Shown piece after piece: positions 12,710 to 61,120 of a DNA stretch of 64,000 bases (position 1 is the stretch's first letter; each line of letters opens with the position of its first letter). The DNA is taken from the NCBI GenBank assembly GCA_964609585.1, contig CAZSRA010000001.1:287290-351289 (forward strand), written 5' to 3'. This stretch comes from an uncultured Candidatus Saccharimonadales bacterium. GTDB lineage: Bacteria; Patescibacteriota; Saccharimonadia; UBA4664. Made by a program: the position numbers and the translations under genes. A model generated the notes under the pieces. It saw only the letters and a list, made by a program, of their open reading frames with translations, was not told where the DNA came from and ran no database searches.

Positions 12710-12846
12710 TGGGCGAGATCTATTTATTTTTGGCTGTTAATCTGAAAAAAGTATGCTATATTTGTCGGCGGCCTCGGTAACGAGGCCTGTTCTCGCAAAA
12801 AACCATCCCATCCGTTTCCCGAAAGTGCTTGGAGGTGTTCGCACCT

Positions 12847-13971: not shown

Positions 13972-14127
13972 CAGGTTTTTTTGCGGGAGGAGCCGGCCGC
14001 TGGACTTAAGGGTGAGAACTCTAGAGTTTGGCGCGCCGGCTTTTCGCGTTTTTAACTTTGGGCTGGAATTGACGGCTGCATCACTGATTTATCGACGCCG
14101 TAAGAAATTCTTAAGAAGCAAGACACA

Positions 14128-20149: not shown

Positions 20150-20243
20150 TAAGCTTGTTTTTTGCGCTTATGTTTGATTAATGCTCTTACTTAGGAGTAT
20201 AACGCTATCACCCTGTCCCCCACTGTGAATGGAGGTGAGCTTA

Positions 20244-21791: not shown

Positions 21792-21853
21792 AGCGATGAT
21801 CCCCGAATGACCCGTTCCTGCACCTTGTGTGTGGGGGCGGGTCCTCAATGTTT

Positions 21854-37874: not shown

Positions 37875-38555
37875 ATGAATAAAGCAGAGCTTGTGTGGCG
37901 AGAGCGTCGCTCCAAGTTAGAAGCCATTGCCTCGGTGTGGACGTGTAACGCGTCCGAGGTGGCATCGCGCTCGGTGTTGGCCGATCCCTGCATTTCCCTT
38001 ATTTTCGTAACGGGTGTCGACAGTTCAGAGGTGTTCTTAAGAGGTCCCGAAACTAAACCGCGCGTTGAAATTCTGATGCCCGGCTATACCTGGACGGCTA
38101 TTCGTCTGCAGCCAGGGATACAGCTAAAGAATTTCCCAATCCAGCAATTTATTGATAATTCTTTATCGCTGCCGGCGGACAGCAGTGGACGATTTCAATT
38201 TGAAGGAGCTTGGTTTCAATTTCCTGACTTTAGTAACGCGGAGCTACTCATTGAGCGGATGCAAGCTTTGGGACTCGTGAGTGGCGATGCTTTGGACAGC
38301 CGAGAATCACCTAGACAAGGCATGTCGTCTAAGAGCTATTCTCGATTGGTCAAGGGCAGTACCGGGTTTTCGCCTTATAAGCTCTATCAGATCCAGCGCG
38401 TACACCGGGCATTGCAATTATTAAAACAAGGCACTCCGGCTACTGTCGTTGCCTCTGAGCTGGGGTTTGTCGATCAGGCACATTTAATCCGTGCTGCAAA
38501 GCAGTTTTTAGGGCACACGCCAAAGGAGCTTCTGAATTTGCCTCAAAATCCTTAA
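37875..38555 (+). CDS. AraC-family transcriptional regulator
   Basis: C-terminal AraC-type dual HTH (SYSRLVKGSTGFSPYKLYQIQRVHRALQLL...FVDQAHLIRAAKQFLGHTPKEL). Confidence 0.75.
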   Translation: MNKAELVWRERRSKLEAIASVWTCNASEVASRSVLADPCISLIFVTGVDSSEVFLRGPETKPRVEILMPGYTWTAIRLQPGIQLKNFPIQQFIDNSLSLPADSSGRFQFEGAWFQFPDFSNAELLIERMQALGLVSGDALDSRESPRQGMSSKSYSRLVKGSTGFSPYKLYQIQRVHRALQLLKQGTPATVVASELGFVDQAHLIRAAKQFLGHTPKELLNLPQNP

Positions 38556-38629
38556 ATTGTCCAAAATATCCAATAGTTATGGCTTGTGGTCCTGTAAAGT
38601 GTCCTCGTAAGCTAGGAAGAAGGATAATT

Positions 38630-39214
38630 ATGCGAAAAATAATTGTAGTTGAATTCATTACTCTCGATGGGGTTACGCAAGGACCTGGTGGGCCCGAGGA
38701 GGGCTTCAAATTTGGTGGCTGGAGTGCCCCGTATTATGACGAAGTTCTTGACGGCCTTGCCAACAAATACCAGCATCCAGCAAAAGATCTTCTGCTCGGC
38801 AAAACCACCTATGATGTGTTTGCTTCTTTTTGGCCTGAGCATGGAGACATGTGGCCTGGTATCGATGACGCTACAAAATACGTAATGAGTAGCGATCCTG
38901 TAAAGTCGGACTGGAAAAACACTGTCGTCCTGAAGAATCTTGACGATCTCAAAAAACTTAAGAACTCAGATGGCCCTGCGATTCAGGTGAGTGGTAGTAG
39001 CGTTATGGTCCAGACCCTACTGGAGCATGACTTGGTGGACGAGTTTGTGCTCATGATTCATCCTTTAACTCTCGGGCAGGGCAGGAAGCTGTTCGCCGAA
39101 GGTACTATGCCGGTGGCTTTTAAGCTGATTGAAAGTGCGACAACGCCGAGTGGCGTCATAGTTGCACACTACAAGCGTGCAGGCGAGGTTAAGACCGGAA
39201 TGATGGGAGCCTAA
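38630..39214 (+). CDS. Dihydrofolate-reductase-like protein (RibD C-terminal domain family), tandem paralog 1
   Basis: MRKIIVVEFITLDGVTQGPGGPEEGFKFGGWSAPY...; AGGAAGAAGGA SD-like purine run upstream; start at M18 of the tracked ORF. Confidence 0.75.
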   Translation: MRKIIVVEFITLDGVTQGPGGPEEGFKFGGWSAPYYDEVLDGLANKYQHPAKDLLLGKTTYDVFASFWPEHGDMWPGIDDATKYVMSSDPVKSDWKNTVVLKNLDDLKKLKNSDGPAIQVSGSSVMVQTLLEHDLVDEFVLMIHPLTLGQGRKLFAEGTMPVAFKLIESATTPSGVIVAHYKRAGEVKTGMMGA

Positions 39215-39218
39215 GTTC

Positions 39219-39827
39219 TTGAGACGAATAGTAGTATTTACCATGATCACTTTGGACGGGGTTATGCAGTCGCCTGGTGGACCAAAAGAAGATAATTCAA
39301 ACGGTTTTACTTATGGTGGCTGGACTCCGCCGTTTGCCGACGGGGCCTTACGAGCCATTATCGACAAGGAAGTGAATGAGCCGTTCGACATGTTGCTTGG
39401 AGCCAAGACTTATCGAGATATATTTGCACCGGGTTGGTCGAGGCAATCGGGCACAATTGCTGATGCCTTTAATAAGGCCACAAAATATGTCGTATCTGAT
39501 AGGCCCCTGGACCTTACCTGGAAAGAATCAGTGCTGATTAATGGTGATGTCGTGGCGAAGATCCAGGTTCTGAAGAAAACAGATGGCCCTATGCTGCAAG
39601 TGTGGGGTAGCGGCAATCTCGTTCAGACGTTGCTTAAGCACGATCTGATTGACGAGCTGCGGCTGAGAACATTCCCCATTACTATTGGCACTGGCAAACG
39701 CTTATTTGCCGAGGGGACGATGCCGGCCGCTTTTGAGCTTATAGAAACCGGAGCTTTGTCGAACGGTATTATCATAGCTAACTATAAACGGTCTGGTGAA
39801 TTCAAAACGGGAGCGTTTGACTTTTAA
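39219..39827 (+). CDS. Dihydrofolate-reductase-like protein (RibD C-terminal domain family), tandem paralog 2
   Basis: MRRIVVFTMITLDGVMQSPGGPKEDNSNGFTYGGWTPPF..., clearly homologous to paralog 1 along its length (…LLGKTTYDVFASFWP… vs …LLGAKTYRDIFAPGW…; …LIESATTPSGVIVAHYKRAGE… vs …LIETGALSNGIIIANYKRSGE…). Confidence 0.75.
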   Translation: MRRIVVFTMITLDGVMQSPGGPKEDNSNGFTYGGWTPPFADGALRAIIDKEVNEPFDMLLGAKTYRDIFAPGWSRQSGTIADAFNKATKYVVSDRPLDLTWKESVLINGDVVAKIQVLKKTDGPMLQVWGSGNLVQTLLKHDLIDELRLRTFPITIGTGKRLFAEGTMPAAFELIETGALSNGIIIANYKRSGEFKTGAFDF

Positions 39828-39838
39828 AAAGAGTATAT

Positions 39839-40411
39839 ATGCGCAAAATCATCTCGTTTATTCATAGTTCGTTTAACGGCGTGGTCACCGGCGACCCGGC
39901 CAGAGACAAGACCAATTGGATGGTTTGGGCAACCCCGCCGAATCCCGATTATCTCTCAACCGTTATGGAAACAGTCGATACCATTTTGCTCGGACGTGGT
40001 ACCTATGAGGATCTTGGAGCAGGCTGGCCGAACATGACTTCCCCATTGGCTCACAAAATCAATACTGTGCACAAAGTGGTGGTTACGGGTGACCATCCGC
40101 TTAATGAGCTTCAATGGGGCGATTTCGAGGCCCCGGTTCAGTTAATTGGTGGCCATATTGAAGAGCAAGTTAAAGCTTTGAAGGACCGTAAGGGCGGCGA
40201 CATTTTGATTTTAGGTAGTCCCGTATTGGTGAGAGCGCTTACCGATGCCGATCTCATCGACGAATACCAGATTAAGCTTCATCCAGTGGTCGTAACTGTG
40301 GGTGAGCATTTATTTGACGGTTTGAAGAAGCGGAAAGATTTTCGACTTCTGGAGGTGGAGGCTCTTGGCGATGGTGGCGTGCTCGTGAAGTACGCGAGTC
40401 TGTCAAAGTAG
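39839..40411 (+). CDS. Dihydrofolate-reductase-like protein (RibD C-terminal domain family), divergent paralog 3
   Basis: MRKIISFIHSSFNGVVTGDPA...ILLGRGTYEDL...LHPVVVTVGEHLF; same fold signature but more diverged. Confidence 0.7.
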   Translation: MRKIISFIHSSFNGVVTGDPARDKTNWMVWATPPNPDYLSTVMETVDTILLGRGTYEDLGAGWPNMTSPLAHKINTVHKVVVTGDHPLNELQWGDFEAPVQLIGGHIEEQVKALKDRKGGDILILGSPVLVRALTDADLIDEYQIKLHPVVVTVGEHLFDGLKKRKDFRLLEVEALGDGGVLVKYASLSK

Positions 40412-40469: not shown

Positions 40470-41060
40470 ATGAGAACAATTCCCCGATCAAGATTTGATG
40501 CCCTGTCGGACGCTGTATTTGCGATAGCCATGACGATTATGGTACTTGAGTTAAAGGTGCCCCTAGCTCCGGCAAGCCCTGACGGCCACGAGATGGTAAG
40601 GCTCCTGTTTGATCAATTGTCGGTTTTTATTTCGTATGCGGCAAGCTTTCTGATTCTTGCGCAACTATGGATGAGTCACAGTACCTTAACAAAAAACATT
40701 GAACATATTCCATCTCGTACTGCACAACTAAACTTTTTGTTTTTATTCTTCGTATGCCTCGTGCCTTTTCCGACGGCGCTGCTTGGTGAATTTGGTTTGC
40801 GCACGGGCGTAATAGTGCTTTACGCTATTATCCTTTCGTGCGCTGCAACGGCCTTGGGTTTTGTTCGTTTAAGCGTGTTGACCTATGAGTCGGCAAGAAA
40901 AGAACGTTTGCAGCTTCAGCGTCGCCGTATCGTTATATGCCTTTTTGTCTCACTATTCGGCATTGCGATTGCCCTTTTGGGCCAAATATCGGAATGGTTT
41001 TTGATACTTTCGCTTATGTTCGTTGGGGGTTCATCGCTTGCCTATCGATTCATAAAGTAA
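40470..41060 (+). CDS. TMEM175/DUF1211-family membrane protein (putative K+ channel homolog)
   Basis: Signature RFDALSDAVFAIAMTIMVLEL (RxxxFSDGVFAIAITLLVLE-like) at the N-terminus of a 6-TM protein. Confidence 0.7.
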   Translation: MRTIPRSRFDALSDAVFAIAMTIMVLELKVPLAPASPDGHEMVRLLFDQLSVFISYAASFLILAQLWMSHSTLTKNIEHIPSRTAQLNFLFLFFVCLVPFPTALLGEFGLRTGVIVLYAIILSCAATALGFVRLSVLTYESARKERLQLQRRRIVICLFVSLFGIAIALLGQISEWFLILSLMFVGGSSLAYRFIK

Positions 41061-41089
41061 TCCGATAACTGTATCTGTGGGAGGTTTAT

Positions 41090-41161
41090 ATGCGTGCCAT
41101 CCGACATGCGGGTGGTCGCCGAGTGCTTGATGAAGAGGAAGATACAACGATTAAAAAATAA
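41090..41161 (+). CDS. Candidate micro-ORF (23 aa, MRAIRHAGGRRVLDEEEDTTIKK) with strong SD
   Basis: GGGAGG 5 nt upstream of the ATG at 41090; followed by an intrinsic terminator at 41195-41229. Confidence 0.25.
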   Translation: MRAIRHAGGRRVLDEEEDTTIKK

Positions 41162-41194
41162 GCAGAGGGCAGCTATGAATTTCTTTAGACGACT

Positions 41195-41229
41195 ACCCGT
41201 CGACTCCCTCTTGAGTCGACGGGTTTCGT
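41195..41229 (+). terminator. Rho-independent terminator
   Basis: aCCCGTCGACTCcctcttGAGTCGACGGGtttcgt: perfect 11-bp stem followed by a T-rich tract; lies between the convergent TMEM175-like and patatin genes. Confidence 0.55.
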
Positions 41230-41234
41230 AGGTA

Positions 41235-42197
41235 TCAGCGCCAGAATTCGGTGAGACGGGCGGCGAGAGCTTTGCCCTGGTCGTAACCGGCATGTGCGGC
41301 GGGCGCACGTTTTGACGGATTCATGACATTCCCCCCGGAGGCGAATATGTCGCGGGCGCTGCCATCCGGGAAGATGGTTTCGACCCGACTGCCGTGGGTG
41401 CGGAGTTCGTCGACCTGGGTGGCGAGGTGCGTGCGCCACTCCAGCGGTTGCAGTGATTTGCCACTGAACGGCGATAGAACTAGCACGCGAGCGTAGCCGG
41501 CGGCCAGATCGGCATTCTCGGCATTAGAGCGGAAGCCGCCGTCGATGTAGCGGTTGTCACCAATATGATAGGGAAGGCCGCTGGAGCAACTGGCAGCGAC
41601 GGCATCCGCCAGGTTGACCCCGCCGCGAGAGTCGAACACGACTGGCTCGCCGGTTCGGGCATCGACCGCCGCGATCTGCACCGCTTGCTGCGGCCAGTGC
41701 TGGCTGGGTAGCCGCGGTTCAACCATGGCGCGCCACTTCGCCGACCAGGAGCCATCCGACGCCGCATCCATTTCGAGTGCTGCGGCGCCCAGTCGGCGGC
41801 GCATGTCGGCCACATTTTTTGCGGCGCCGATGATTGTGGTCAACCTCTCCAGGTGGTTTTGGCTCGTCGCCGGCTTCACGGGTGCAGATCCGAGGCGAGA
41901 CCCGGTCGGAGCTGTTTGTGGCGGGGGCGCGGCAATGGTGGTGGCATACAGTTCGGCTGGAGTCGCGCCGGTGATCTGGGCTGCGACCGTGGATCCGGCG
42001 GATGTGCCAATGATTAGGTCGGCCTTGGTGACGTCCAGCCCGCCGTCAAACAAGCCGGCGACGACGCCGATGAGCCAGGCGTTGCCGGCCGATCCGCCGC
42101 CACCGAGGACTAATGCCTGTTTGCCCGCCTTAGGTTGGTCGTGTTTATCGTCGGTTGCTTCGGATGTAATGTCCGTAATATTGCTTGTCGGTTTCAT
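41235..42197 (-). CDS. Patatin-like phospholipase (G+C-rich gene)
   Basis: Oxyanion GGGxxG (LVLGGGGSAGNAW), nucleophile elbow GTSAGS, catalytic Asp in YIDGGF. Confidence 0.8.
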   Translation of the reverse strand: MKPTSNITDITSEATDDKHDQPKAGKQALVLGGGGSAGNAWLIGVVAGLFDGGLDVTKADLIIGTSAGSTVAAQITGATPAELYATTIAAPPPQTAPTGSRLGSAPVKPATSQNHLERLTTIIGAAKNVADMRRRLGAAALEMDAASDGSWSAKWRAMVEPRLPSQHWPQQAVQIAAVDARTGEPVVFDSRGGVNLADAVAASCSSGLPYHIGDNRYIDGGFRSNAENADLAAGYARVLVLSPFSGKSLQPLEWRTHLATQVDELRTHGSRVETIFPDGSARDIFASGGNVMNPSKRAPAAHAGYDQGKALAARLTEFWR

Positions 42198-42398: not shown

Positions 42399-42473
42399 TG
42401 GCTGGGACGGAGGGATTCGAACCCCCGAATACCAGGACCAAAACCTGGTGCCTTACCGCTTGGCCACGTCCCA
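42399..42473 (-). tRNA. tRNA-Gln (anticodon UUG), CCA encoded
   Basis: Minus-strand sequence UGGGACGUGGCCAAGCGGUAAGGCACCAGGUUUUGGUCCUGGUAUUCGGGGGUUCGAAUCCCUCCGUCCCAGCCA folds as a cloverleaf with anticodon loop UUUUGGU (UUG at 34-36) and T-loop GGTTCGAATCC. It is near-identical in the D-arm to classical bacterial tRNA-Gln. Confidence 0.85.
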
Positions 42474-45051: not shown

Positions 45052-46041
45052 TTAGTCCTTTTGATGCTCGAGATAATCGTGATAAGTGGACACAAGAGTT
45101 TCGATTTCGTGGCGAATTATGGTGCTTTTACAGCGGTAGGCGGCGGCATTGGGGTGGCCTCCTCCGCCGAAGCTTTCGGCGATGATGCTAGCAGCACCGG
45201 TAGTGGAGCGCAAAGGGACGTTGATCTTGGTGCCATAGTTTTTGAATACGGCGACGAGCTCGACGCCTTTGGTCCACTGCATTTCGCTCAAGATGAGCGT
45301 GTAGGGTTCGGCAATGTCTTTGTAGCGGGCGACCATGTCGGGCGTGATTTCGGCGACGGCGAGACGGCCATCCTCGTAGAATTCGACAGAGGTGAGGAGC
45401 TTGCCTTTGAGGTGAAGGAGGTCTGAGGTGAGAGCGCCGGCCTCGCGTTTGGTTTTGTAGAGCTCGTAGAGGTTGGCGCCACGGCGGGTGAGCTCGGCGA
45501 GAGCCTCGACGCTATCGGCGGTGGTGCCGGAGGTGGTGAGGCCGAGTGAGTCGCTGAGGAGGGCCGAGGCGAGCTTGTTTGCGGCCTGGGGGTTGATGGG
45601 CCATTTGAACTCGAGGCAAAGCTTGGTGATGAGCTCCGAAGTAGCTACGGCTTCCTCGACAATTTGAGTGGTTTCGAAGCCGAAATCTTGACGAGAGGTG
45701 TGATGATCGATGATGAAAAACGGTTTGGCGGTGAGAGCGGCGAAATGATGCTCAAGTGCCGATTTGATAAGTGCGGGAGCGCCGGTGTCGACGAGCACAG
45801 TGAGATCGAAGTGTTTGGGCAGGTTTTGCGATACGCGGTCCCAGCCTTCGAGGCCATGCAGGTAGGGCTCGGGCTCTTTGTAAGAATAGAGAGCAACGGT
45901 TTTGCCGAGGTCGCCAAAAATTTCCTCGAGGCCGAGGGCAGACCCTAGGCTGTCGCCATCGGGGCTATCGGGTTGGAGGATGAGAATGGTTTCGGCCGAA
46001 TCAATGGCGGACGCTAGTTGTTTATGAGGGGATGTGGTCAA
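45052..46041 (-). CDS. nrnA: DHH-DHHA1 phosphoesterase (NrnA-like oligoribonuclease/pAp phosphatase)
   Basis: DHH motifs (ILQPDSPDGDSLGS, FIIDHHTS) and DHHA1 GGGHPNAAAYR. Confidence 0.8.
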   Translation of the reverse strand: MTTSPHKQLASAIDSAETILILQPDSPDGDSLGSALGLEEIFGDLGKTVALYSYKEPEPYLHGLEGWDRVSQNLPKHFDLTVLVDTGAPALIKSALEHHFAALTAKPFFIIDHHTSRQDFGFETTQIVEEAVATSELITKLCLEFKWPINPQAANKLASALLSDSLGLTTSGTTADSVEALAELTRRGANLYELYKTKREAGALTSDLLHLKGKLLTSVEFYEDGRLAVAEITPDMVARYKDIAEPYTLILSEMQWTKGVELVAVFKNYGTKINVPLRSTTGAASIIAESFGGGGHPNAAAYRCKSTIIRHEIETLVSTYHDYLEHQKD

Positions 46042-46637
46042 AATGCCTGCCTTCCTTGCAGTGCTCTTCCGAGCGTAATTTGGTCAGCATACTCGAGATC
46101 GCCCCCTACTGGCAAGCCGCGAGCGAGTCTGGTGAGCGTCACTGGTAGATTTTCGAGCTGTGCGCGAATGTACATGGCGGTAGACTCGCCTTCGAGTGAT
46201 GGGTTGGTGGCGAGGATGATTTCCTGCACTTGCCCGCTTTCCACGCGCTTTAGGAGGCTTGCGATTTCGAGTCGCTCTGGACCAATACCGTCGATGGGTG
46301 AAATAACACCGCCGAGGACGTGGTAAAGGCCCTGGTACATACCAGTTTTTTCGATGGCAACGACATCGAAAGGCTCTTCGACGACGGCAATAGTGGTGCG
46401 GGTACGTTTGGGAGAGGTGCACACATCGCACTCCATATTTTCGGCAAAGTTGAAGCACGTCTGGCAGGTGCGCACGCCGGCATGCAGGCCATCAACGGCA
46501 CTAGCGAGACTAGCGCTGCGGGCCGGGTCTTTTTTGAGCAAGTGGAAGGCTAGGCGCTCGGCAGTGCGCGGTCCCACGCCTGGTAGTTTGGCTAGCTCGG
46601 TGATGAGGCGTTCGACTGATGAAGGGACAATTTGCAT
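46038..46637 (-). CDS. recR: Recombination protein RecR
   Basis: HhH LPGVGPRTAERLAFH, C4 zinc finger CQTCFNFAENMECDVC and Toprim domain; 199 aa. Confidence 0.9.
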   Translation of the reverse strand: MQIVPSSVERLITELAKLPGVGPRTAERLAFHLLKKDPARSASLASAVDGLHAGVRTCQTCFNFAENMECDVCTSPKRTRTTIAVVEEPFDVVAIEKTGMYQGLYHVLGGVISPIDGIGPERLEIASLLKRVESGQVQEIILATNPSLEGESTAMYIRAQLENLPVTLTRLARGLPVGGDLEYADQITLGRALQGRQAF

Positions 46638-46647
46638 AGTTTTTAGC

Positions 46648-47298
46648 TTAAGTAGTAATGGCTAAGATATCGGAAAAGTTATTGATAGTGTAGGTGGGAC
46701 CTAGGGCCTGAAGCGTGGCGAGATCGTAGTAGACTGCATGCCTGGGCGGATAGAAAAGAATTGAGCGAGTGCCGGCATTTTGGGCGGCTTTCACGTCTTT
46801 GTCGGAGTCGCCGATCATGAGAGTGGCGTCTGGACTACCGCCGAGAGCTTCAAGCGCTTTTAGGAGTGGCTCGGGATCGGGTTTATGGCGGGAAACGTCA
46901 TCGCCCGTTATTACCACGTCAAATAAGTCGGTAAGGCGGTGTTTCCTGAGGAGTGGTTCGATGTGCCGGCGATGTGAGGTACTAATGAGAGCCAGTGTCT
47001 TGCCGCGATGATGGAGTTCTTCGAGCGTTTCTTTGGCGCCTGGGTAAAGCTGGACGTCTGGAAGGCCTTGCTCGATTTGCGCGACAACTTCATCAAGTAC
47101 GGTTTGTGGGTTTTCGAGTCCAAGGTCTTTGAAATAGTTGAAGAAATTTCCGAGACTTTCGCCAAGCTGGTAATCGCTTAGATGGTGGCCGTAGTTTGAA
47201 AGAATGAGGCGCTCAGCATTTAGCCAGAGGTCGAGGGTTTGAACGATATTTCCGTCCCAATCGAAAAGGAGATATTGGTTGCTGGTGGTTTTTGGCAT
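46648..47298 (-). CDS. HAD-superfamily hydrolase (phosphoglycolate-phosphatase-like)
   Basis: HAD motif I LLFDWDGNIV, motif II ISTS, motif IV GDSDKD. Confidence 0.75.
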   Translation of the reverse strand: MPKTTSNQYLLFDWDGNIVQTLDLWLNAERLILSNYGHHLSDYQLGESLGNFFNYFKDLGLENPQTVLDEVVAQIEQGLPDVQLYPGAKETLEELHHRGKTLALISTSHRRHIEPLLRKHRLTDLFDVVITGDDVSRHKPDPEPLLKALEALGGSPDATLMIGDSDKDVKAAQNAGTRSILFYPPRHAVYYDLATLQALGPTYTINNFSDILAITT

Positions 47299-47308
47299 TG
47301 AGGGGCAA

Positions 47309-47596
47309 CTACAGTCCGGGAATTCCCAGGCCTCCGGCGACGCTACGCATTTTTTCGGCGGCGAGCTGTTGCGATTTGGTGATAGCCTGGGTGATGGCGG
47401 ATTCGAGCCATTTTTCGACCTTGGCCATTTCGGTATCGCGAATTACGGCTTCATCGAGGCTGATCTTTTGGATTTTTTGTTCGCCATTGATTTTGACTTT
47501 AACGGCGCCATTACCAGCTTCAACCTCGATGGTTTCTTTAGCAAGAGCAGACTGGATCTTCTTTAACTCAAAGAGAGCTTTGCTTTTTTCGAACAT
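47309..47596 (-). CDS. ybaB: Nucleoid-associated protein YbaB/EbfC
   Basis: 95 aa; the typical YbaB coiled-coil N-terminus and conserved C-terminal GGLGIPGL are at the classical position next to recR. Confidence 0.8.
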   Translation of the reverse strand: MFEKSKALFELKKIQSALAKETIEVEAGNGAVKVKINGEQKIQKISLDEAVIRDTEMAKVEKWLESAITQAITKSQQLAAEKMRSVAGGLGIPGL

Positions 47597-47690
47597 GATT
47601 ACTCCTTAAATTTAGCAACCTCTTTTCGAGCTCCACGCAGGCTTAGTTCTTGTGCTAGAATTACTCTGCACAGTACTAAATGGATGGTCT

Positions 47691-49550
47691 ATGAAGAAGT
47701 CTTTGTATAATCGTACCACAAGCTGGCTCAGGCGTTTTATTTGGACGTACCATGGCTGGATGGCGGGTGGTTTGCTTTTGCTCATGGCGGGACTTGGTTT
47801 GGGGAGTATGTTGGGTAATTCGGCGACCTCCGACGAAGTTGCGCATATTCCAGCAGGATACGCGACGGTATATTTGCATGACTACCGGCTTAATCCTGAG
47901 CATCCGCCCTTAATGAAGGACCTCGCTGCTCTGCCGCTTCAGTTTATGCACCTAGCGTTTCCGACAGATTTGCCCACTTGGACAATGCAGGGTAACGGTC
48001 AATGGGATGTGGGTCGGTACTTTTTGTACTACCTAGGCAATAATGCGGATATGATTTTGTTTGCGGCGCGGATGCCCATTTTATTGGTGGCGCTGTTGTT
48101 TGGGGTGTTTTTGTATGAGGTGTGTCGGCGTCATTGGGGTACGGGTGTGGGGCTTTTGACCTTGTTTTTCTATTGTTTGAGTCCAAATATTTTGGCTCAT
48201 GCGACGCTTGTTACTACCGATTTAGGATTGAGCGCATTTGCTTTTGTGGCGATTGTGGCATTTGCCCGGTTTGTCAGGATGCCAACGCGATGGAATTTGG
48301 TATGGCTTTCGCTTGCCCTGGCAGGCGTGGAGCTTGTGAAGTTTTCAGCTTTTATTCTGTATCCTTTGCTCGGGTTGATCGCTGCCGGCTTGGTGTGGGC
48401 GATGGATCGTCCAAAGCGGATGCTTGAACGGTTGCGGGTGCTTGTGGGTGGATTTGTTGCCGCCTCAGCCCTTAGCTGGGTATGGATGTGGTTGTTTTAT
48501 ATGCCTCAAGTATGGCTGATGCCTGAAGATGTGCAGAACCGGCTGATCCAAAGCCAGTTGCCGTATGGGCTGGGACATTCGGTGGCTCAAGTTTTGATTA
48601 GTTTTAATCACGGGCCAGTACTAAAGCCGATTGCGCAGTACTTGCTGGGTCTCGCAATGGTATTTGGGCGGGTTGTAGGCGGTGGGGTGACGTATTTTAA
48701 CGGCCAAGCTTCCACCCAGATCTACCGCCTGTATTTTCCGGAGCTCGTATTGCTCAAAACTCAGGTGGCTTTGCTCATTATGCTCGCGGTGGTCATGGGT
48801 TATGGAATATGGCGAGTCGTCACCGGCGACCAGCGGCGTTTGGGCAGATTTGCGAGCCATGTCCGTACACATGTTTTAGAGTGGACATTGGGAATATTTG
48901 GTATTGTCTACTTTTCGATTGCTGTGGCTGGGAATTTGGAGCTTGGGATTCGTCATATTCTGCCAGTTTATATTCCTCTCTTTGTGCTAGTGGCGATTGG
49001 AGTGGTAAAAACTTTGCGACTTTTGGCGAAGCAGGGACAACTCTTGCCAGCTAGCATTGGGTTTGTTGTGCTGGCTGTATGGTACGGTGCAAGTACGATC
49101 CTGGTGTATCCGAGTTATCTTGCGTATTTTAATGAAATTGCCGGCGGACCAGCTCATGCGGATCGGTATTTCTCTGATTCAAGCGTGGACTGGGGGCAGG
49201 ACCTGAAGCGGCTTAAATCCTATGTGGTTGATCATCCTGAGATTAAGCACATAGCAGTTGATTATTTCGGTGGCGGAGATGTGGCATATTATTTTTGTGG
49301 GCGACGCTATGATGAGGCTGGGCATTTAGTTGCTACGCCAGATGGCTATGATTGTTCACACAGCGTTTATGAGCCGTGGCACGCCGGAAACGGTGAGTAT
49401 ACTGGGCAGTACATCGCCGTTTCGGAAGCATACCTTGAGAGTGACCGGTATTTTTCGGTTGCAGAGCATAATCCCGGATATGGTTATCTGCGAGCCCGCC
49501 AGCCTATAGCGAAGATCGGCGGGAGCATTTACGTTTATAAATTGTTTTAG
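47691..49550 (+). CDS. Polyprenol-phosphate-sugar-dependent glycosyltransferase, GT39/PMT_2 (ArnT/Pmt-like), paralog A
   Basis: ~12 TM N-terminal region with the PMT_2/ArnT-type first periplasmic loop (…ATSDEVAHIPAGY…HPPLMKDL…); start at M14 of the tracked ORF. Confidence 0.75.
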   Translation: MKKSLYNRTTSWLRRFIWTYHGWMAGGLLLLMAGLGLGSMLGNSATSDEVAHIPAGYATVYLHDYRLNPEHPPLMKDLAALPLQFMHLAFPTDLPTWTMQGNGQWDVGRYFLYYLGNNADMILFAARMPILLVALLFGVFLYEVCRRHWGTGVGLLTLFFYCLSPNILAHATLVTTDLGLSAFAFVAIVAFARFVRMPTRWNLVWLSLALAGVELVKFSAFILYPLLGLIAAGLVWAMDRPKRMLERLRVLVGGFVAASALSWVWMWLFYMPQVWLMPEDVQNRLIQSQLPYGLGHSVAQVLISFNHGPVLKPIAQYLLGLAMVFGRVVGGGVTYFNGQASTQIYRLYFPELVLLKTQVALLIMLAVVMGYGIWRVVTGDQRRLGRFASHVRTHVLEWTLGIFGIVYFSIAVAGNLELGIRHILPVYIPLFVLVAIGVVKTLRLLAKQGQLLPASIGFVVLAVWYGASTILVYPSYLAYFNEIAGGPAHADRYFSDSSVDWGQDLKRLKSYVVDHPEIKHIAVDYFGGGDVAYYFCGRRYDEAGHLVATPDGYDCSHSVYEPWHAGNGEYTGQYIAVSEAYLESDRYFSVAEHNPGYGYLRARQPIAKIGGSIYVYKLF

Positions 49551-50329
49551 CTAGAGGCGCGAACAGGGTGATGGGCATAGTGGGGTTTTCGGTAGCGGCC
49601 GGACCAAATATTTAAGCGCATTTTGAAGGGATCGGAAAAGCCTCCGAGTACCACTTTGATCTGAGAATCGCCAACGAGCCCATTTTCACTCGTTTTGGGA
49701 TCGTGCCAATCGGGGGTTTCGATGAAGCTAATGGTGTAGCCAAGCTGGCGAGCAATGGCGAGTACTTCCATGTCGAAACTCCACTGGAGCATGGTCATGC
49801 GGCTAAAGATGGCTTCGGCAGCCGCGGCTTCGAAGACTTTGAACCCGCACTGCGTGTCTTTTATGCCGGGAACGACGAGAGCTTGAGCTGCGAGATTGGC
49901 CGCTTTGGACATGAGCTTGCGCATAAGGCCTTTGTGAATGCGCAGTAGGTCGCGAACCGCAATTGCGACTTGACCATCGTGGTCCATGAACGTTTTGACG
50001 TCGTCCAGGTGGGCAAGAGGAGTGGCGAGGTCTGCATCCATGAAGAGTTTATAGCGACCTTTGGCTTCGTAGATGCCGAGGCGGACGTCTCGGCCCTTGC
50101 CCACTCTTGGACCGGCTGGAATAAGCCTAAAATGCTGAAAAAGATGACTTTGAGATTGTGCGATGCGGGCCGTGCCGTCGGGGCTATCGGCCGTGACTAC
50201 CAATACTTCTACGACTCCATAGTGGCGAGTATTGAGAAATCTTGCGAGTCGGACTAGGGTGTCGCTAATATGATTTGCTTCCATGTAGGCCGGGATGATG
50301 ATACTGAGGTCGACTTGACCGGAATTCAT
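49547..50329 (-). CDS. GT2 polyprenol-monophosphate sugar synthase (Ppm1/DPM1-like)
   Basis: GT-A fold: LSIIIPAYMEANHI, DxD-type motif FMDADLATP, plus QCGFKVF. Confidence 0.8.
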   Translation of the reverse strand: MNSGQVDLSIIIPAYMEANHISDTLVRLARFLNTRHYGVVEVLVVTADSPDGTARIAQSQSHLFQHFRLIPAGPRVGKGRDVRLGIYEAKGRYKLFMDADLATPLAHLDDVKTFMDHDGQVAIAVRDLLRIHKGLMRKLMSKAANLAAQALVVPGIKDTQCGFKVFEAAAAEAIFSRMTMLQWSFDMEVLAIARQLGYTISFIETPDWHDPKTSENGLVGDSQIKVVLGGFSDPFKMRLNIWSGRYRKPHYAHHPVRASS

Positions 50330-51870
50330 TGTGTTACTTCGTAGGTATAGAAGATCTCGGCTTGATTGAACGAGGAATAATGCGGCCTTAACACGCCGCC
50401 GGGAAACTTGGCTTTGAGCACTTTGATGGCATCGTCACGAACGGCGGTTACGATATAGAACTCGCGTTTGGTGTTGCCTGCCAGCGGTAATGATTGAAGT
50501 TGCGGGATCGTGAGCGTGTGATAACGACTTTGGCCGTAGTCTAGATAGTCTATGATGGGCGTTTGGTCGGCTGGCACTACTACAAACCGATCGTTCTTTG
50601 TCGTATCGGTTTGCACGTGAAGTGCAATTTGAGTGGCACCTTCATCATAGGCTAGATAGAGGGCTGTCGAGCCGGCCCAAGCTCTAAAGTATTGAGTGAA
50701 CCCTTGGAGGAGACTTAGGGTAAATAAGATGATGATAGCGGCTTGGCCTGTGGTTCGGGCCGCAGAATTTATGGGGAAGGTAGTGTACCAAAGCTCAAGC
50801 ATATAGGCTACACCGAGCCCGCTGAGGGCAAAAATGAGGGGCAGGGCACCAACGGCCCAGCTTGAATTTGGCACACCGGTGGTGGCGAGGACAGCCGGAA
50901 AGAGCAATAAGCAAAGGGTTGTGAGGAGTATTTGGTAGCGCTTGAGGTGGAGTCTTGAAATAGCCACTAATAGTCCGGCGATGAGCATAATACCGGCGAA
51001 GGCATTGAGCAGCGGCTCGGTGGAGAGATTATGACGATAATTTTCATCGCCGTAGACATTAAACATAAGCAGAACCTTGAGCAGATTGTGACCGAGGGCC
51101 GGGAATGAGCGAGCGATCCCAAGAGTTTGCGGCATGGAAGTGATGATTGATAAGGATTTTCCCATGAGATAAGCAAAAGCGCCGAGACCGAGGACGAAAA
51201 TACCAATGCCAACACCGCCGGTGGGTATGAGTTTTCGGAGCAAGTGGCGCCTGGCGGCTCTCCAGAAACCAAGGATTAGAACCATTCCAACTAAAAGCCA
51301 GCCAATGGGGCCACTAAAAAGGCTTAAGGTGAGGATGGCGCTGAGCGCGAGATAGCTTTGAGGGCCTGGTTTTTTGAGCGCGCGTGAGCAAGCCCATAGT
51401 GCCAACGGAACGAGTAGTGGCGGCAGAGCTGATTCGACGCCGTTGCGCGAGATGGTAACGGCCCAAGGCGAGACGGCCATTAAAACTGCGCTGGCCCAGG
51501 CTGTACGAAGGTCGAACCAGTCTTGAACCCAAAGCCAGGTTGCGACAACGGCGAGCGTCCCAAGTAGTGCCGGCCAAAGCCGTAAAGCAACAGCTGTATG
51601 ACCAAACATATGTATGCTTAGAGACTGCAACCAAATCCACAGAGGAGCGTAGCCGTTGCCTGCACTGAGTGTGGGTAACCAGTGGCCTGCACCAATCTTT
51701 AGGGCTTCGAGACCGATACGGGCTGAGGTGTCATCGAGCGCTGGTGGTAAGGTATTTAGCTGATAAAACCGAAAGAAGGCTGCCACAATCGTGACAACGC
51801 CGAGACCTACGGGCGTCCAGAAACGGCCGAGGAAAGCGAAGGGAGCATGGGGTTTTGGAGCATGTGTCAT
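50326..51870 (-). CDS. Polyprenol-phosphate-sugar-dependent glycosyltransferase, GT39/PMT_2 (ArnT/Pmt-like), paralog B
   Basis: 514 aa, 11-13 TM, same family as paralog A; overlaps the GT2 gene start by 4 nt. Confidence 0.75.
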   Translation of the reverse strand: MTHAPKPHAPFAFLGRFWTPVGLGVVTIVAAFFRFYQLNTLPPALDDTSARIGLEALKIGAGHWLPTLSAGNGYAPLWIWLQSLSIHMFGHTAVALRLWPALLGTLAVVATWLWVQDWFDLRTAWASAVLMAVSPWAVTISRNGVESALPPLLVPLALWACSRALKKPGPQSYLALSAILTLSLFSGPIGWLLVGMVLILGFWRAARRHLLRKLIPTGGVGIGIFVLGLGAFAYLMGKSLSIITSMPQTLGIARSFPALGHNLLKVLLMFNVYGDENYRHNLSTEPLLNAFAGIMLIAGLLVAISRLHLKRYQILLTTLCLLLFPAVLATTGVPNSSWAVGALPLIFALSGLGVAYMLELWYTTFPINSAARTTGQAAIIILFTLSLLQGFTQYFRAWAGSTALYLAYDEGATQIALHVQTDTTKNDRFVVVPADQTPIIDYLDYGQSRYHTLTIPQLQSLPLAGNTKREFYIVTAVRDDAIKVLKAKFPGGVLRPHYSSFNQAEIFYTYEVTQ

Positions 51871-51871
51871 C

Positions 51872-52369
51872 TTAAGAAAATACCACTTTTTTATACATTA
51901 TATAATTCCAGATAAGGCTTAGTATGGTGCCAACAACTTTTGCCCCATTTTTGATGAGGAACTGGTCGTGGCCGGTAAGATGGATGGCGTGGGCAATTGC
52001 GAGCAGAAGCGCAAGGGGCGCAAGCCAGACTTTGGTGAGGAGGTGGATGGTGGTGGTTTGGATTACATACAACCCAAAACCGGTAACGACGAGGAATGTT
52101 GCTGCTTGACGGGCGACGGAACCGTGGTGTTTGCGAAAAACAACCTTTTTATTGGCCACAAAGCTAAAGGCCATGGCGATGGAGGTAGAGATAATGTTGG
52201 ACTGAATCAGTCCGAAGCCGATTTTACTTGAAAGAAGGTTATAGATGGTGAAGTCGATGAGGGTATTGATGACGCCGACGAAACTAAATTTTGTTATACG
52301 AGTTAAACTGGTTCTTCGGGCAGACTGTATGTGTGACACACTTACCTCTTTGTTTGTGTTTTTAAGCAT
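51872..52369 (-). CDS. GtrA-family membrane protein (polyprenol-P-sugar flippase accessory)
   Basis: 4-TM small protein with the GtrA-like signature FSFVGVINTLIDFTIYNLL. Confidence 0.7.
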   Translation of the reverse strand: MLKNTNKEVSVSHIQSARRTSLTRITKFSFVGVINTLIDFTIYNLLSSKIGFGLIQSNIISTSIAMAFSFVANKKVVFRKHHGSVARQAATFLVVTGFGLYVIQTTTIHLLTKVWLAPLALLLAIAHAIHLTGHDQFLIKNGAKVVGTILSLIWNYIMYKKVVFS

Positions 52370-52405: not shown

Positions 52406-53815
52406 TTAGTTTTGACCATGGAATCGTTCAAGATCGGCAAAACGGCGTTGTTCCGGGTGGAAGTAGAGCTCAACGTCGCCGATGGGGCCGTTACGATGTT
52501 TTTTGACCAGGATTTCGGTGATGTTTTCATCGGCTTGTTTGTCGTAATACCAAGGTCGATAAATGAAGGCAACGACGTCGGCATCTTGTTCGATGGAACC
52601 AGAGTCGCGCAAGTCGGAAAGCTGCGGGATTGGCGGGTTACGGGCTTCGACGGCGCGGGAGAGCTGAGACAGGGCAAGCACTGGCACGTTGAGCTCACGG
52701 GCGAGACCTTTGAGGCCACGAGAAATTTCTGAGACTTCTTGCTGGCGACCCTCCATACTGCGAGCACCGCCGGAAATGAGCTGGAGGTAGTCGATAATGA
52801 TGAGTCCGAGGCCGTGTTCAGCCTGGAGGCGACGAGCTTTGGTGCGCATTTCCATGACATTGGTCATGGCGGAGTCGTCGATGTAGAGAGGGGCCTCGGA
52901 GAGCTCGGCCATGGCTTCGTTGATGCGAGGGAAGTCATCATCGTCGAGTGCGCCGGTGCGGAGCTTCCAGGAATCGATGCCGGATTCGATGGCGAGGAGT
53001 TGATCGATGAGCTGCTCTTTGGACACCTCAAGGCTAAAGAAGCCAACGGGTATCCCCTCTTTGGCGGCGACGTGGTGGGCGATGTTCATGACGAGCGTGG
53101 TTTTACCCATAGAGGGGCGAGCAGCGAGGATGAGCAGGTCAGAGTTTTGAAGGCCCGCAAGCAAGTGATCGAGGTCGCGAAAACCGGTGGGGATGCCGCG
53201 GAGTTTGTCGGAGTTGGTGTGCATTTCGTTCAGGCGGTCGAAGGAATCGGCGAGAATGGAGTGTATGGGGATGAAGTTTTGTTTGAGGTTTTTTTGACTG
53301 ACTTCGAAGATGGTTTGCTCGGCTTTATCGAGGAGTTGATCGAGCGGAGTCTGCTCGTCGTAGCCGAAGCCGGTAATGTTCGAAGCGGCGGCGATGAGAC
53401 GACGGAGAGTAGCCTTATGGGCCACGATGCCGGCATAGTGCACGACATGAGCGGCCGTTGGTACGGCGCTGGTGAGATCGGCGATATACGCAGATCCGCC
53501 GATACGTTCGAGTTCACCTGCTTCTGAAAGTTTGTTGGATAGGCTAACGATGTCGATAGGCTGACGGCCTTCGTAGAGGTCCATGATGGCAGCAAAGATG
53601 AGCGCATGGTTTTCGACATAGAAGTCCTCTACGGAAACAATATCCGCGACTTTTATGATGGCATCTTTTTCGATGAGAATAGACCCAAGAAGACTGGTTT
53701 CGGCTTCGAGGTTTTGGGGGGGTACGCGCCCGGCGGCAACTTCTTGGTTTAGGATTTCGCCAATCGTGGGCGTATGCGGCTTTTTGTCGCGTGTTTTGGA
53801 GTTTGTACTTGGCAT
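52406..53815 (-). CDS. dnaB: Replicative DNA helicase DnaB
   Basis: N-terminal DnaB domain (PPQNLEAETSLLGSIL) and RecA-like C-terminal domain with Walker A ILAARPSMGKT and H4 SQLSR motifs; no intein. Confidence 0.9.
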   Translation of the reverse strand: MPSTNSKTRDKKPHTPTIGEILNQEVAAGRVPPQNLEAETSLLGSILIEKDAIIKVADIVSVEDFYVENHALIFAAIMDLYEGRQPIDIVSLSNKLSEAGELERIGGSAYIADLTSAVPTAAHVVHYAGIVAHKATLRRLIAAASNITGFGYDEQTPLDQLLDKAEQTIFEVSQKNLKQNFIPIHSILADSFDRLNEMHTNSDKLRGIPTGFRDLDHLLAGLQNSDLLILAARPSMGKTTLVMNIAHHVAAKEGIPVGFFSLEVSKEQLIDQLLAIESGIDSWKLRTGALDDDDFPRINEAMAELSEAPLYIDDSAMTNVMEMRTKARRLQAEHGLGLIIIDYLQLISGGARSMEGRQQEVSEISRGLKGLARELNVPVLALSQLSRAVEARNPPIPQLSDLRDSGSIEQDADVVAFIYRPWYYDKQADENITEILVKKHRNGPIGDVELYFHPEQRRFADLERFHGQN

Positions 53816-55323
53816 TATTCTACGATCTCTCCACCAAGGATTTCGAGGGCTGACGAGACGAGTTCAGCGGTAGCATCGGGTCGTGCGCGTTTGGTGCGCG
53901 CCGTTTCGTCGGTGCGGGCAGAGATCTTGATTGGGCGTCCGTAGACTTTGGCGGCAGCGGTTTCGATGAGAAGTCGGTTGGCGGGTTTCAAGAAAAGATC
54001 GCGATGAAAATTGAACCGCGGCTTGATGGTGATTTCGTCGGCATCAAAATCGACAGGGTACATTTGCAAGAGGGCAGCGAGTGAGTTGTTTTGAGCCTTG
54101 AGCCCGACCAGTACCTTCGGCCAAAGCTCTGACGTGCTTGGGCTAGGTGTCGAAGGTGCTTGGGGTTTGGTGTCGGCAGAGTTGGGCGAGGGCGAGGTGG
54201 CTTCGACTGCGGATGCTTTGGGAGTGGGGGTATGCTTGTTGGCTGGCCGCACATTTGTTTGTAGGTCTTGTGCGGGAGCTGGATCGGTTGCGGTGAGGCG
54301 AACCAGGGTGGTTTCCAGGGTGAGTTGTGGCCAACTCGAACGCGTGACTTCGAGAAGAGCATTAATGATATTGGCAATTACGGCCGTAGGCACGGCGGCA
54401 ACTAGCTTGCTAATGGTTTCACTGGGGCTGGGGACGGCGTCGGTGCTTGCAAGTAGGACTTGCCGCCAAAGGTTTGCGAGCTGGGTTGCAATGATGCTGG
54501 CTTGGGCGCCGCTATTGCCCAGCCGCGTGGCCACGGCGAGAGCGGACGGGGTATCGCGAGCGGCAACAGCATGCGCTAGGGCTGCGATTTCGGCTTCAGC
54601 CGTGTACCCGAGGAGCTCGCGAACATGATCTGCGTCGACCAAGCTAGAGCTGGCATTTGCTAGTTGGTCGAGAAGACTGATAGCATCGCGAAACCCTCCC
54701 CGGGCTGTCTCGGCGATGATACTCAGAGCATCCGGCGTAATGTGAATATTTTCACTTGCCGCAATGCGCTCGAGTTGCATTATGAGATCGGCGGTGGTGA
54801 TGGGTTTAAAATTAAAAGCTTGGGTGCGGGAAATGATGGTCTCGGGCAATTTGTGGGCTTCGGTTGTGGCTAGAATAAATACGGCGTGGGCAGGAGGCTC
54901 CTCGAGCGTCTTGAGGAGCGCATTGAAGGCCTCAGTGGTGAGCATGTGAACTTCGTCGATGATGTAAACCTTGAAGCGACCGGCGGTGGGGGCGAGGCCG
55001 ACTTTTTCGCGTAGATCGCGGACGGCGTCAATTGAGCGGTTGGAGGCAGCATCCATTTCAATAATGTCGAGCGAGGAGTTTAGTGCGGTTTGGCAGTTGG
55101 CGCATTGATTGCAGGGCTTGGGCTCCCCGGTGCAATTGAGGGCGCGGGCGAGCAGTCGAGCAACGCTGGTTTTTCCGACACCGCGAGGACCGGTAAACAA
55201 ATATGCGTGGCGGAGTCGGCCACTGGCCAGAGCTGCGGTAAGGGTGCGCACAACGTGGTCCTGACCGATAACTTCGGAAAAATCACCACTACGATATTTG
55301 CGGTACAGGGCTAGTTCGGACAC
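53815..55323 (-). CDS. dnaX: DNA polymerase III subunit gamma/tau
   Basis: AAA+ Walker A GPRGVGKTS, zinc module CNQCANCQ and SRC motif; the stop overlaps the dnaB start. Confidence 0.9.
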   Translation of the reverse strand: MSELALYRKYRSGDFSEVIGQDHVVRTLTAALASGRLRHAYLFTGPRGVGKTSVARLLARALNCTGEPKPCNQCANCQTALNSSLDIIEMDAASNRSIDAVRDLREKVGLAPTAGRFKVYIIDEVHMLTTEAFNALLKTLEEPPAHAVFILATTEAHKLPETIISRTQAFNFKPITTADLIMQLERIAASENIHITPDALSIIAETARGGFRDAISLLDQLANASSSLVDADHVRELLGYTAEAEIAALAHAVAARDTPSALAVATRLGNSGAQASIIATQLANLWRQVLLASTDAVPSPSETISKLVAAVPTAVIANIINALLEVTRSSWPQLTLETTLVRLTATDPAPAQDLQTNVRPANKHTPTPKASAVEATSPSPNSADTKPQAPSTPSPSTSELWPKVLVGLKAQNNSLAALLQMYPVDFDADEITIKPRFNFHRDLFLKPANRLLIETAAAKVYGRPIKISARTDETARTKRARPDATAELVSSALEILGGEIVE

Positions 55324-60388: not shown

Positions 60389-60919
60389 TTACGCTTTAGC
60401 TTCGCTAAGCGCGTTTAGTACGTTAATGATAGAACGGACGTTGCCTGCCATGACGCCGACAAAACCGGTCAGAGGTGCAGCGATAGTGCCAACCACCTGG
60501 GCGAGCAGCTGCTCGCGTGTCGGTAGGGTGGCCAGGGCTTTTACCTGAGCGGCGGTGAGGATCTGACCGTCGCCAGTGATGGCTCCGACGATTTCAAGGG
60601 CACCATGAGTCTTGGCGAATTGGAAGATAACGCGGGCGGGTGCCACTTCGTCATCAAAACCCATTGCAAGAGCGGTGGGGCCAGTGAAGGTCGCAGGATC
60701 AATCGCAGCGAGGGTGGGGTTGTTTTTGGCGGCGAGACGCAGGAGCGTATTTTTGGTAACACGGTAGGTGATACCTTCAGTACGCAGAACGCCTCGGAGC
60801 TCTTCAACCTCACGCACGGTGAGACCTCGGTAGTCGGTCATGACGGCCAGTTTGATGCGTCCAAGCTCGCTGCCGAGGGTTTCGACGGCTTGCTCTTTGG
60901 CAGTGCGGGAAATGGCCAT
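60389..60919 (-). CDS. rplJ: 50S ribosomal protein L10
   Basis: 176 aa; the L10 N-terminal domain plus the C-terminal L7/L12-binding helix. Confidence 0.9.
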
Positions 60920-61120
60920 ATGACTTTTGCTCCCTTAGTTTTTAAAAAATCTCTTCGGTGTTTACCAAAGAGACATGCGAAGTAATCCTTTTGACGCGAA
61001 AGCTTTTTGTGAAGCTTTAGGTTTCTGGAATCGCCTCGGTAGCAAGTTTTAAGCTCTTTTGGAGCAGCTACTGTCTTTGGTGAACTAGGTTAGTTTAGCA
61101 GGGTTTGGGGGATTTCGTCA
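60920..61120 (-). promoter_or_regulatory. Putative rplJ 5' leader (L10 autoregulatory leader region)
   Basis: ~300-nt untranslated region upstream of rplJ with several stems (e.g. ggtgtttaccaaagagacatgc / gaagctttaggtttc). I did not verify the leader structure. Confidence 0.25.

Follow-up and report, generated by a model that had tools for sequence, protein, structure and literature searches.

The DNA analysed here (the window) is a stretch of 64,000 nucleotides from an uncultured Candidatus Saccharimonadales bacterium of the class Saccharimonadia, which belongs to the candidate phyla radiation (CPR). It covers positions 287,290 to 351,289 of contig CAZSRA010000001.1 (assembly GCA_964609585.1). 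Region 47652-52369 of the window consists of four long open reading frames (ORFs), here called A, B, C and D. Together they probably form a multi-component (“three-component”) transmembrane glycosylation system, a reading to which a probability of roughly 0.7 is assigned.

Gene A (47691..49550, plus strand) encodes a 619-residue membrane glycosyltransferase (GT) of the GT-C fold with a Pfam PMT_2 domain. The other three genes lie on the minus strand. B (49547..50329) encodes a soluble GT2 protein of 260 residues with the GT-A fold (Pfam Glycos_transf_2). C (50326..51870) encodes a second GT-C-fold membrane protein, 514 residues long and likewise with a PMT_2 domain. D (51872..52369) encodes a small membrane protein of the GtrA family (165 residues, Pfam GtrA_DPMS_TM). 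Full-length homologues of each of the four number in the hundreds to thousands, with identities of 35-77%. Because of these homologues, and because the gene order is kept in independent genomes, A to D are genuine genes and not chance ORFs. The same four frames and families had been named in a preliminary description of this DNA, and coordinates, Pfam matches, homologue counts and conserved order all bear them out.

The ORF of A opens with a GTG codon at 47652 and would give 632 residues. The most likely start is the ATG at 47691 (M14 of the ORF), since the 1378 homologues are mostly 617-620 residues long and share the N-terminus MKKSLYNR (pattern MK(K)S.Y.R). One public gene call of 596 residues is probably too short.

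Protein families of the four genes

Of the four genes B is conserved best, with 60-77% identity across the class. It matches PF00535 (Glycos_transf_2) with an E-value of 4.7e-17. Searched as a single sequence against the PDB, B finds as its best match the dolichyl-phosphate mannose synthase (DPMS) of P. furiosus (5mlz), aligning to the catalytic domain (residues 21-191), including the DAD motif. A profile of 33 sequences gives DPMS at 7.2e-14, GtrB at 2.3e-7 and ArnC at 2.7e-5, with generic GT2 enzymes in between, and reaches glucosyl-3-phosphoglycerate synthase only at 0.07. Two motifs are invariant, D98-A-D100 and D158-TQCGFK. These relationships suggest that B is a polyprenyl-phosphate hexose synthase. 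Its homologues are mostly labelled automatically by JGI as dolichyl-phosphate beta-glucosyltransferase (the Alg5 KEGG orthology term). B has no hydrophobic or transmembrane (TM) segment and thus no membrane anchor within the same polypeptide. A processive enzyme of the cellulose- or chitin-synthase type, considered as an alternative for B, is ruled out: the protein is small (260 residues) and TM-less.

D matches PF04138 (GtrA_DPMS_TM) over residues 27-164 with an E-value of 1.9e-19 (70.4 bits, cut-off 26.1). The name of this family refers both to GtrA and to the TM domain of DPMS. As a single sequence D finds only chance matches in the PDB. A profile of 15 sequences has one match there, the TM domain of P. 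furiosus DPMS (residues 252-359).

B and D, as two separate genes, thus together match the two domains of archaeal DPMS. The correspondence differs from DPMS in several respects. The two domains are separate genes with C between them, identity is low, no equivalog model is reached, and the homologues of B carry a glucosyl (Alg5-type) label instead of a mannosyl one. D is predicted to be the membrane partner of B, a translocator of the lipid-linked sugar, or both. Of the flippase role initially proposed for this gene, the GtrA family assignment stands, and D may instead, or in addition, serve the GT2 protein as the TM domain serves DPMS.

A matches PMT_2 (PF13231) just above the cut-off of 26.1 (28.1 bits, E 2.8e-6). 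The protein has about 13 TM helices, an extracytoplasmic loop 1 and a C-terminal alpha/beta domain of about 140 residues. Loop 1 carries an invariant D48-E49, followed 20 residues later by N68-PEHPPL-x-K76. The DE pair is present in all 43 Saccharimonadia homologues, and the C-terminal domain has two further invariant motifs, D496-S..D500-WGQ and D524-YFGG. Among 81 CPR homologues, DE...PEHPPL is found in 80, the sole exception being truncated, and DWGQ in all 81. The count for PEHPPL is biased because this motif belonged to the search pattern; DE and DWGQ did not. The C-terminal domain alone retrieves 3315 cluster representatives, in which it nearly always forms the C-terminal end of proteins of about 550-650 residues.

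C matches PMT_2 more clearly (E 8.3e-13). Invariant in the class are M269-FN..GD275-x-N..HN281 and FPINSAAR (365-372), and in other CPR classes the C-like proteins likewise keep G-D-x-N..H-N without exception. Between A and C themselves the relationship is remote (hhalign probability 65%).

Comparison with known families required a fold search, because sequence searches against the PDB gave little. As single sequences both A and C find only chance matches. The profile of A finds nothing, and that of C has weak matches to AglB and ArnT. Confident AlphaFold2 models were built from alignments of 43 sequences for A (pLDDT 88.4, pTM 0.90) and 45 sequences for C (pLDDT 89.7, pTM 0.88). For A, the top Foldseek match is Pmt4 of C. 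thermophilum (4e-6), together with ArnT, AglB, STT3, ALG12 and PglB. For C it is ArnT (5ezm, E 3.9e-10, TM-score 0.59), followed by STT3, AglB, PglB and ALG9/12. In the models the ArnT-like architecture is present, with 13 TM helices and a periplasmic C-terminal domain, and C too combines a bundle of about 13 helices with a C-terminal alpha/beta domain. In both proteins this domain is predicted to lie outside the membrane, since the positively charged N-terminus would be inside. Thus both A and C resemble glycosyltransferases of the GT-C fold, and an assignment to families other than glycosyltransferases, which had been named as the result that would overturn the first account, was not obtained. 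The best structural matches of the two proteins (ArnT, Pmt, STT3/AglB/PglB, ALG9/12) all use donors linked to polyprenyl phosphate.

ArnT (GT83; 5ezm/5f15) and Pmt (GT39; 6p25, 9e61, 9i5k) share with A and C the GT-C(A) fold, a bundle of about 13 TM helices and, at the C-terminus, an extracytoplasmic domain, and Pmt shares with A the DE motif of loop 1. Unlike these enzymes, however, A and C show sequence identities of only 10-16%, A has no significant match in the PDB and a family-specific DWGQ domain at its C-terminus, and the acid in loop 1 of C is variable. Family models separate them as well. A does not match PF02366 (PMT), any NCBIfam model including that for Pmt (NF058602), or the ArnT equivalog model (NF009784/PRK13279), and C does not match the NCBIfam Pmt and ArnT models. 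Among 26 C-like proteins, one weakly matches NF058602 and one matches the ArnT model (E 1.5e-4). A comparison of Pmt-type with ArnT-type motifs, proposed as a check, therefore gives a mixed result: the DE of loop 1 is present in A and not in C, and the PMT and ArnT family models match neither protein. No single CAZy family is favoured for A or C, and the public label “GT39” reflects the PMT_2 domain alone.

One more specific possibility is protein O-glycosylation of the Pmt type, in which A, like actinobacterial Ppm1/Pmt, would place a hexose on serine or threonine residues of proteins that are secreted or lie on the surface, for example pilins or surface-layer proteins. The invariant DE of loop 1 with HPPLxK some 20 residues on is similar to the arrangement of DE and HPPL in Pmt (GT39), Pmt4 is the best structural match of A, and some orthologues of A carry precomputed PF02366 matches. 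A 2024 bioRxiv preprint on the type IV pili of Saccharibacteria (also ISME J, 2025) predicts O-glycosylation of the pilins. Against this, the A protein of the window itself matches neither PF02366 nor NF058602, and B is labelled as Alg5-like (glucose-type), not Ppm1-like. Outside Saccharimonadia, moreover, A stands near genes for an FtsQ-type POTRA protein, MreB, FemAB and GT4 enzymes, which would fit a wall polymer or a lipid-linked acceptor equally well. A Pmt-type system is thus a possibility, though a rather doubtful one.

Conservation of the cluster in related genomes

The named homologues of A, B and C come from metagenome-assembled genomes (MAGs) of Candidatus Saccharimonadia, Saccharibacteria and Patescibacteria. 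In 13 further Saccharimonadia loci the genes run in the order recR-ybaB, A, GT2-C-gtrA-dnaB-dnaX, and their proteins share 30-70% identity. The order of dnaX-dnaB ahead of gtrA-C-GT2 is the same in loci L002-L015, L019 and L085. In two of the loci about 4 kb of extra DNA separates A from the GT2 gene (L006:5991-10010 and L019:9854-13755). Horizontal insertion of the cluster was considered and ruled out: its GC content of 0.49-0.52 is typical of the window, and its position is conserved throughout the class.

The deeper lineage represented by L085 (GCA_964594805.1, Saccharimonadales) retains dnaX-dnaB-gtrA-C-GT2. Its slot for A (L085:10321-11817) holds a different GT-C protein of 498 residues with a PMT_2 domain, encoded on the same strand as gtrA-C-GT2. 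By BLASTP this protein has no significant similarity to A or to C. The arrangement looks like a swap of an acceptor-specific transferase at a fixed locus.

Conserved order also bears on the possibility that A to D are mere neighbours in a compact genome, in which case the product of B would be a cytoplasmic glycan or a soluble glycoside, and the donors for A and C would come from elsewhere. B does weakly match the glucosyl- and mannosyl-3-phosphoglycerate synthases. Outside Saccharimonadia, B-like GT2 and GtrA genes are usually not adjacent to A, and the cultivable relative Southlakia epibionticum has a single GT-C gene at this site. However, the top matches of the B profile are lipid-phosphate sugar synthases, seven orders of magnitude ahead of GpgS, and the group gtrA-C-GT2, with its overlapping or abutting frames, persists across deep divergence, L085 included. 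Accidental adjacency is considered highly improbable.

Relatives of A occur in at least 578 CPR species representatives among the GTDB species genomes. The best 80 relatives are all from CPR, and a few MAGs are labelled otherwise. Groups represented among these 80 are Saccharimonadia, Doudna-, Moran-, Parcu-/Paceibacteria, Nealson-, Portnoy-, Yanofsky-, Azam- and Sungbacteria. Clustering of neighbouring genes covered 81 loci of A in CPR. A C-like GT-C gene stands near A in 54 of the 81 loci, and in 42 of these it lies directly upstream on the same strand. A convergent gene for an FtsQ-type POTRA protein lies downstream of A in 54 loci, a DNA_pol3_delta2 (dnaX/holB-like) gene is near A in 35 and GtrA in 22. 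Pairs of GT4 genes, MreB, FemAB and SerRS also occur near A.

Loci outside Saccharimonadia (L017, L031, L035, L039, L040, L064 and about 50 others) typically have A followed by the POTRA gene on the opposite strand. After it come a DNA_pol3_delta2 protein of about 300 residues, two GT4 proteins and MreB (for instance, L064:9898-15430).

Since DNA_pol3_delta2 genes are found near A in other CPR classes, the linkage of A to a clamp-loader gene predates the arrangement seen in Saccharimonadia. Likewise, the clustering of neighbours in the 81 loci shows that A and C are an old CPR gene pair in a neighbourhood of replication, division and cell-wall genes; in Saccharimonadia this pair has been brought together with the GT2 and GtrA genes. 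The preliminary description had argued that two different GT39 paralogues imply two acceptors. That conclusion is not demonstrated. A and C are related only remotely and form a conserved pair, and the loop-1 acid of C is variable; because the pair is conserved across CPR classes, one shared pathway fits equally well.

Some carriers of the pair have unexpected labels. Loci L026, L027, L044, L054, L063, L069, L073 and L080 hold a typical CPR A and C and are labelled “uncultured Bdellovibrionales bacterium”, and two proteins with 53% identity to A (P0102, P0108) are labelled Pseudonocardiaceae. In all these cases CPR contigs have probably been given a wrong label or binned wrongly.

A proposed lipid-carrier glycosylation pathway

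That the four genes exist, their families and folds, the domain correspondence of B and D, the conservation of motifs and the conserved synteny are established. Donor sugar, lipid carrier, direction of the steps, acceptor and division of labour among A, C and D are inferred as follows. B would act on the cytoplasmic face, held at the membrane by D, and would move one hexose from a nucleotide sugar onto a polyprenyl (undecaprenyl-type) monophosphate. The Alg5-like labels of its homologues suggest UDP-glucose as a possible donor. The polyprenyl-phosphate hexose would then pass to the outer leaflet, with D as the conventional candidate translocator and C as an alternative. On the outside, A would use the lipid-linked sugar to modify an extracytoplasmic acceptor, either a secreted or surface protein or a cell-wall polymer. 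C would most likely be a second GT-C transferase of the same pathway, acting on a second site or acceptor.

Elsewhere in the window, a minus-strand gene at 25102-28515 encodes a protein of 1137 residues with three DUF4082 repeats (E 9e-141) and a weak match to the PHR domain. It may be a large surface protein and, as such, a candidate acceptor for glycosylation.

Three-component systems have been described in several bacteria and phages, such as GtrA/GtrB/GtrX of Shigella phages, CsbB/GtcA/YfhO and GtlA/GtcA/GtlB of Bacillus and Listeria, and Csd/CflA of Lactococcus (PMC8035078; PMC7389260, PMC11127046). In these, a GT-A-fold GT2 enzyme charges polyprenyl phosphate with one sugar, a small GtrA-family membrane protein is present, and one or more GT-C proteins act on the outside. 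All such parts are found in the cluster: a polyprenyl-phosphate-type GT2 (B), a GtrA protein (D) and polytopic proteins of the GT-C fold (A and C). Variants with a cytoplasmic GT-A protein and a separate membrane protein, and variants in which one donor and flippase serve several GT-Cs, have been reviewed (PMC8035078), and the cluster resembles both. It differs from the described systems in that A and C belong to uncharacterised, CPR-wide GT-C families that have no curated model, that its GT2 has no membrane anchor, and that it is embedded in a replication and recombination locus between dnaX-dnaB and ybaB-recR.

As a type of system the cluster is ordinary for a three-component one, and the labels GT39, GT2 and GtrA are already attached to its genes in public annotation. 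The parts list and the lipid-carrier mechanism first proposed for it agree with the folds, with the relatives of the GT2 protein and with the GtrA family. Specificity of the GT39 type, which was part of the same proposal, does not: A and C match PMT_2 only, and no Pmt model. New comparative points include that the position of the whole cluster is kept across Saccharimonadia and the pair of A and a C-like protein across CPR classes. Literature searches that paired Saccharibacteria or Patescibacteria with GtrA, GT39 or GT-C gave no results.

An essential role is suggested by published transposon sequencing (Tn-seq) of Southlakia epibionticum ML1 (PMC10633639 Table S1). In this genome recR (SEML1_0398) and ybaB (0399) are followed by a “glycosyltransferase family 39 protein” (SEML1_0400), dnaB (0401) and dnaX (0402). 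SEML1_0400 (1461 bp) is listed as a core family with the calls GD/ES/ES (growth-defective or essential), and its transposon insertions number 55 in the input DNA and afterwards 4, 1 and 1 (PMC10633639). A cluster of GT2 (K20534), GtrA and GT4 genes elsewhere in that genome (0898-0900) is also called GD/ES, and the GT-C-like genes 0023, 0705, 0876 and 0880 are non-essential (PMC10633639). The text of that paper (Cell 2023) does not discuss these genes.

Several points weigh against the reading of the cluster as a three-component system. Polarity on ybaB and recR could account for the apparent essentiality of SEML1_0400, and the gene may be the counterpart of C, of A or of the L085-type GT-C. 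The match of D to the TM domain of DPMS is weak by itself (E 0.36), yet it is the one expected. None of A, B, C and D reaches a curated equivalog model in NCBIfam. Neither a nucleotide-sugar pyrophosphorylase nor another nucleotide-sugar enzyme was found in the 64-kb window. The type IV pili preprint calls glycosylation in Saccharibacteria unexplored. Finally, 17 of 93 orthologues of C (18%) have no aspartate or glutamate in the five residues after LPPG(L), which weakens the case for C as a transferase.

The acid in loop 1 is the expected catalytic base of GT-C enzymes. The C protein of the window has LPPAL-DD here (D46/D47), close relatives have DE, YxGE or YDSS, and distant members and those of other CPR classes have the classical (H/Y)PDEA. 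Such decay raises the possibility that C is not a glycosyltransferase at all. It might be a translocator, similar to archaeal Agl23, for the polyprenyl-phosphate hexose made by B and D, or a non-catalytic partner of A, and A would then be the sole transferase. Agl23 of Haloarcula hispanica works with the GT2 protein Agl22, and purified Agl23 translocates a lipid-linked glycan in vitro (PMC11182771). The two proteins have been implicated in flipping of hexose-phosphate-dolichol, and the mechanism of Agl23 is still under study (PMC11182771).

The pairing of a GT2 protein with a GT-C-like membrane protein of the PMT_2 type is common to the Agl pair and the cluster. For C, as for 17 of the 26 C-like CPR proteins (best E 4e-17), the curated family that comes closest is indeed TIGR03663, that of the “flippase activity-associated protein” Agl23. 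In C the loop-1 acid is absent from the 17 orthologues and shifted in others, while GDxN..HN and FPINSAAR are invariant. Within one operon the gene for C also stands between gtrA and GT2, and across CPR classes C and A form a pair. On the other hand, C reaches only 31.8 bits against a cut-off of 126.25. Its match covers model positions 5-143 of 435, that is the N-terminal third with TM2-TM4, a region that all PMT_2 proteins share. In the Agl pair, which is archaeal, the carrier is dolichol. The acid is kept in 76 of the 93 orthologues, in C of the window and in the C-like proteins across CPR (YPDEA). The whole fold of C, including its C-terminal periplasmic domain, is ArnT-like, and the cluster already contains a flippase candidate in GtrA. 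A translocator or non-catalytic role for C is therefore unlikely, and a second transferase of the three-component pathway is the preferred assignment.

A broader proposal joins several of these observations. In it, A and its C-like partner would be an ancient, CPR-wide and essential module for envelope glycosylation. C would have turned into an Agl23-like translocator or non-catalytic partner, at least in this clade of Saccharimonadia, and the linkage to dnaX, dnaB, ftsQ-like genes and mreB would reflect coupling to the cell cycle in ultrasmall epibionts. As a whole this proposal is speculative and quite improbable. Its separate elements, namely the CPR-wide pairing of A and C, the linkage to replication and division genes, the decaying motif of C and the probable essentiality of the syntenic GT-C, add modestly to the interest of the cluster. 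Saccharibacteria and other CPR bacteria attach to their host bacteria by way of their surface. For this surface the cluster offers a concrete and testable candidate pathway, with a split DPMS-like synthase (B and D) and two uncharacterised GT-C families. Because the GT-C in the syntenic slot of a cultivable relative has been called essential by Tn-seq, genetic tools exist.

Neighbouring genes and other features of the window

The cluster lies, as first reported, between ybaB-recR and dnaB-dnaX. All flanking genes are on the minus strand: recR (46038-46637) and ybaB (47309-47596), both identified with Pfam and NCBIfam, and dnaB (52406-53815) and dnaX (53815-55323), both identified with Pfam. 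Overlooked at first was a gene for a hydrolase of the HAD family (46648-47298, minus strand; Pfam and NCBIfam), which stands between ybaB and recR.

The genes dnaX, dnaB, D, C and B are tightly packed, with gaps or overlaps of -4 to +36 nt. D-C-B lies directly downstream of dnaX and dnaB, and since they share a strand and only 36 nt separate dnaB from D, dnaX-dnaB probably form one operon with D-C-B. A is convergent with B, overlapping its end by 4 nt, and the group of ybaB, HAD and recR is divergent from A. Scans for promoters and terminators gave no more sites than in shuffled sequence, and transcription units were therefore judged from gene spacing alone.

In NCBIfam the HAD hydrolase comes closest to PpaX, phosphoglycolate phosphatase and the beta-phosphoglucomutase family, without reaching the cut-off of any of them. 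A role as sugar-phosphate phosphatase or mutase is conceivable. In loci L002, L003 and L005-L015 the gene is absent and ybaB directly adjoins recR, which suggests an insertion specific to the lineage of this genome.

A phosphohexomutase gene at 61238-62785 had been put forward as a source of sugar-1-phosphate for the cluster. The gene is a real mutase of the PGM/PMM family by Pfam and NCBIfam. Its proposed link to the cluster was rejected: it lies 9 kb away, it is separated from the cluster by the unrelated genes for Ham1, a CYTH protein, an M20 peptidase and rplJ, and no related locus has a mutase nearby. A connection to the cluster is only a possibility.

The window holds some other features apart from the cluster. 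An Rfam L10_leader (60935-61098, minus strand, 61.7 bits) lies upstream of rplJ (60389-60919). The only tRNA is tRNA-Gln at 42399-42473 (minus strand). At 37875-40411 (plus strand) an AraC-type regulator is followed by three tandem paralogues with a RibD_C domain (211, 202 and 190 residues).

At 15857-18116 (minus strand) is a gene for a protein of 506 residues in which an NQR2/RnfD/RnfE-like membrane region is joined to an oxidoreductase NAD-binding domain; the gene adjoins one for the flavin transferase ApbE. In a reduced CPR genome such a fusion may be unusual.

GC content rises to about 0.60 at 13001-14000, 21001-22000 and 41001-42000, compared with a window mean of about 0.51. The ORFs at 12829-13971 and 20229-21791 have no Pfam match, and that at 41235-42197 encodes a patatin-like phospholipase.

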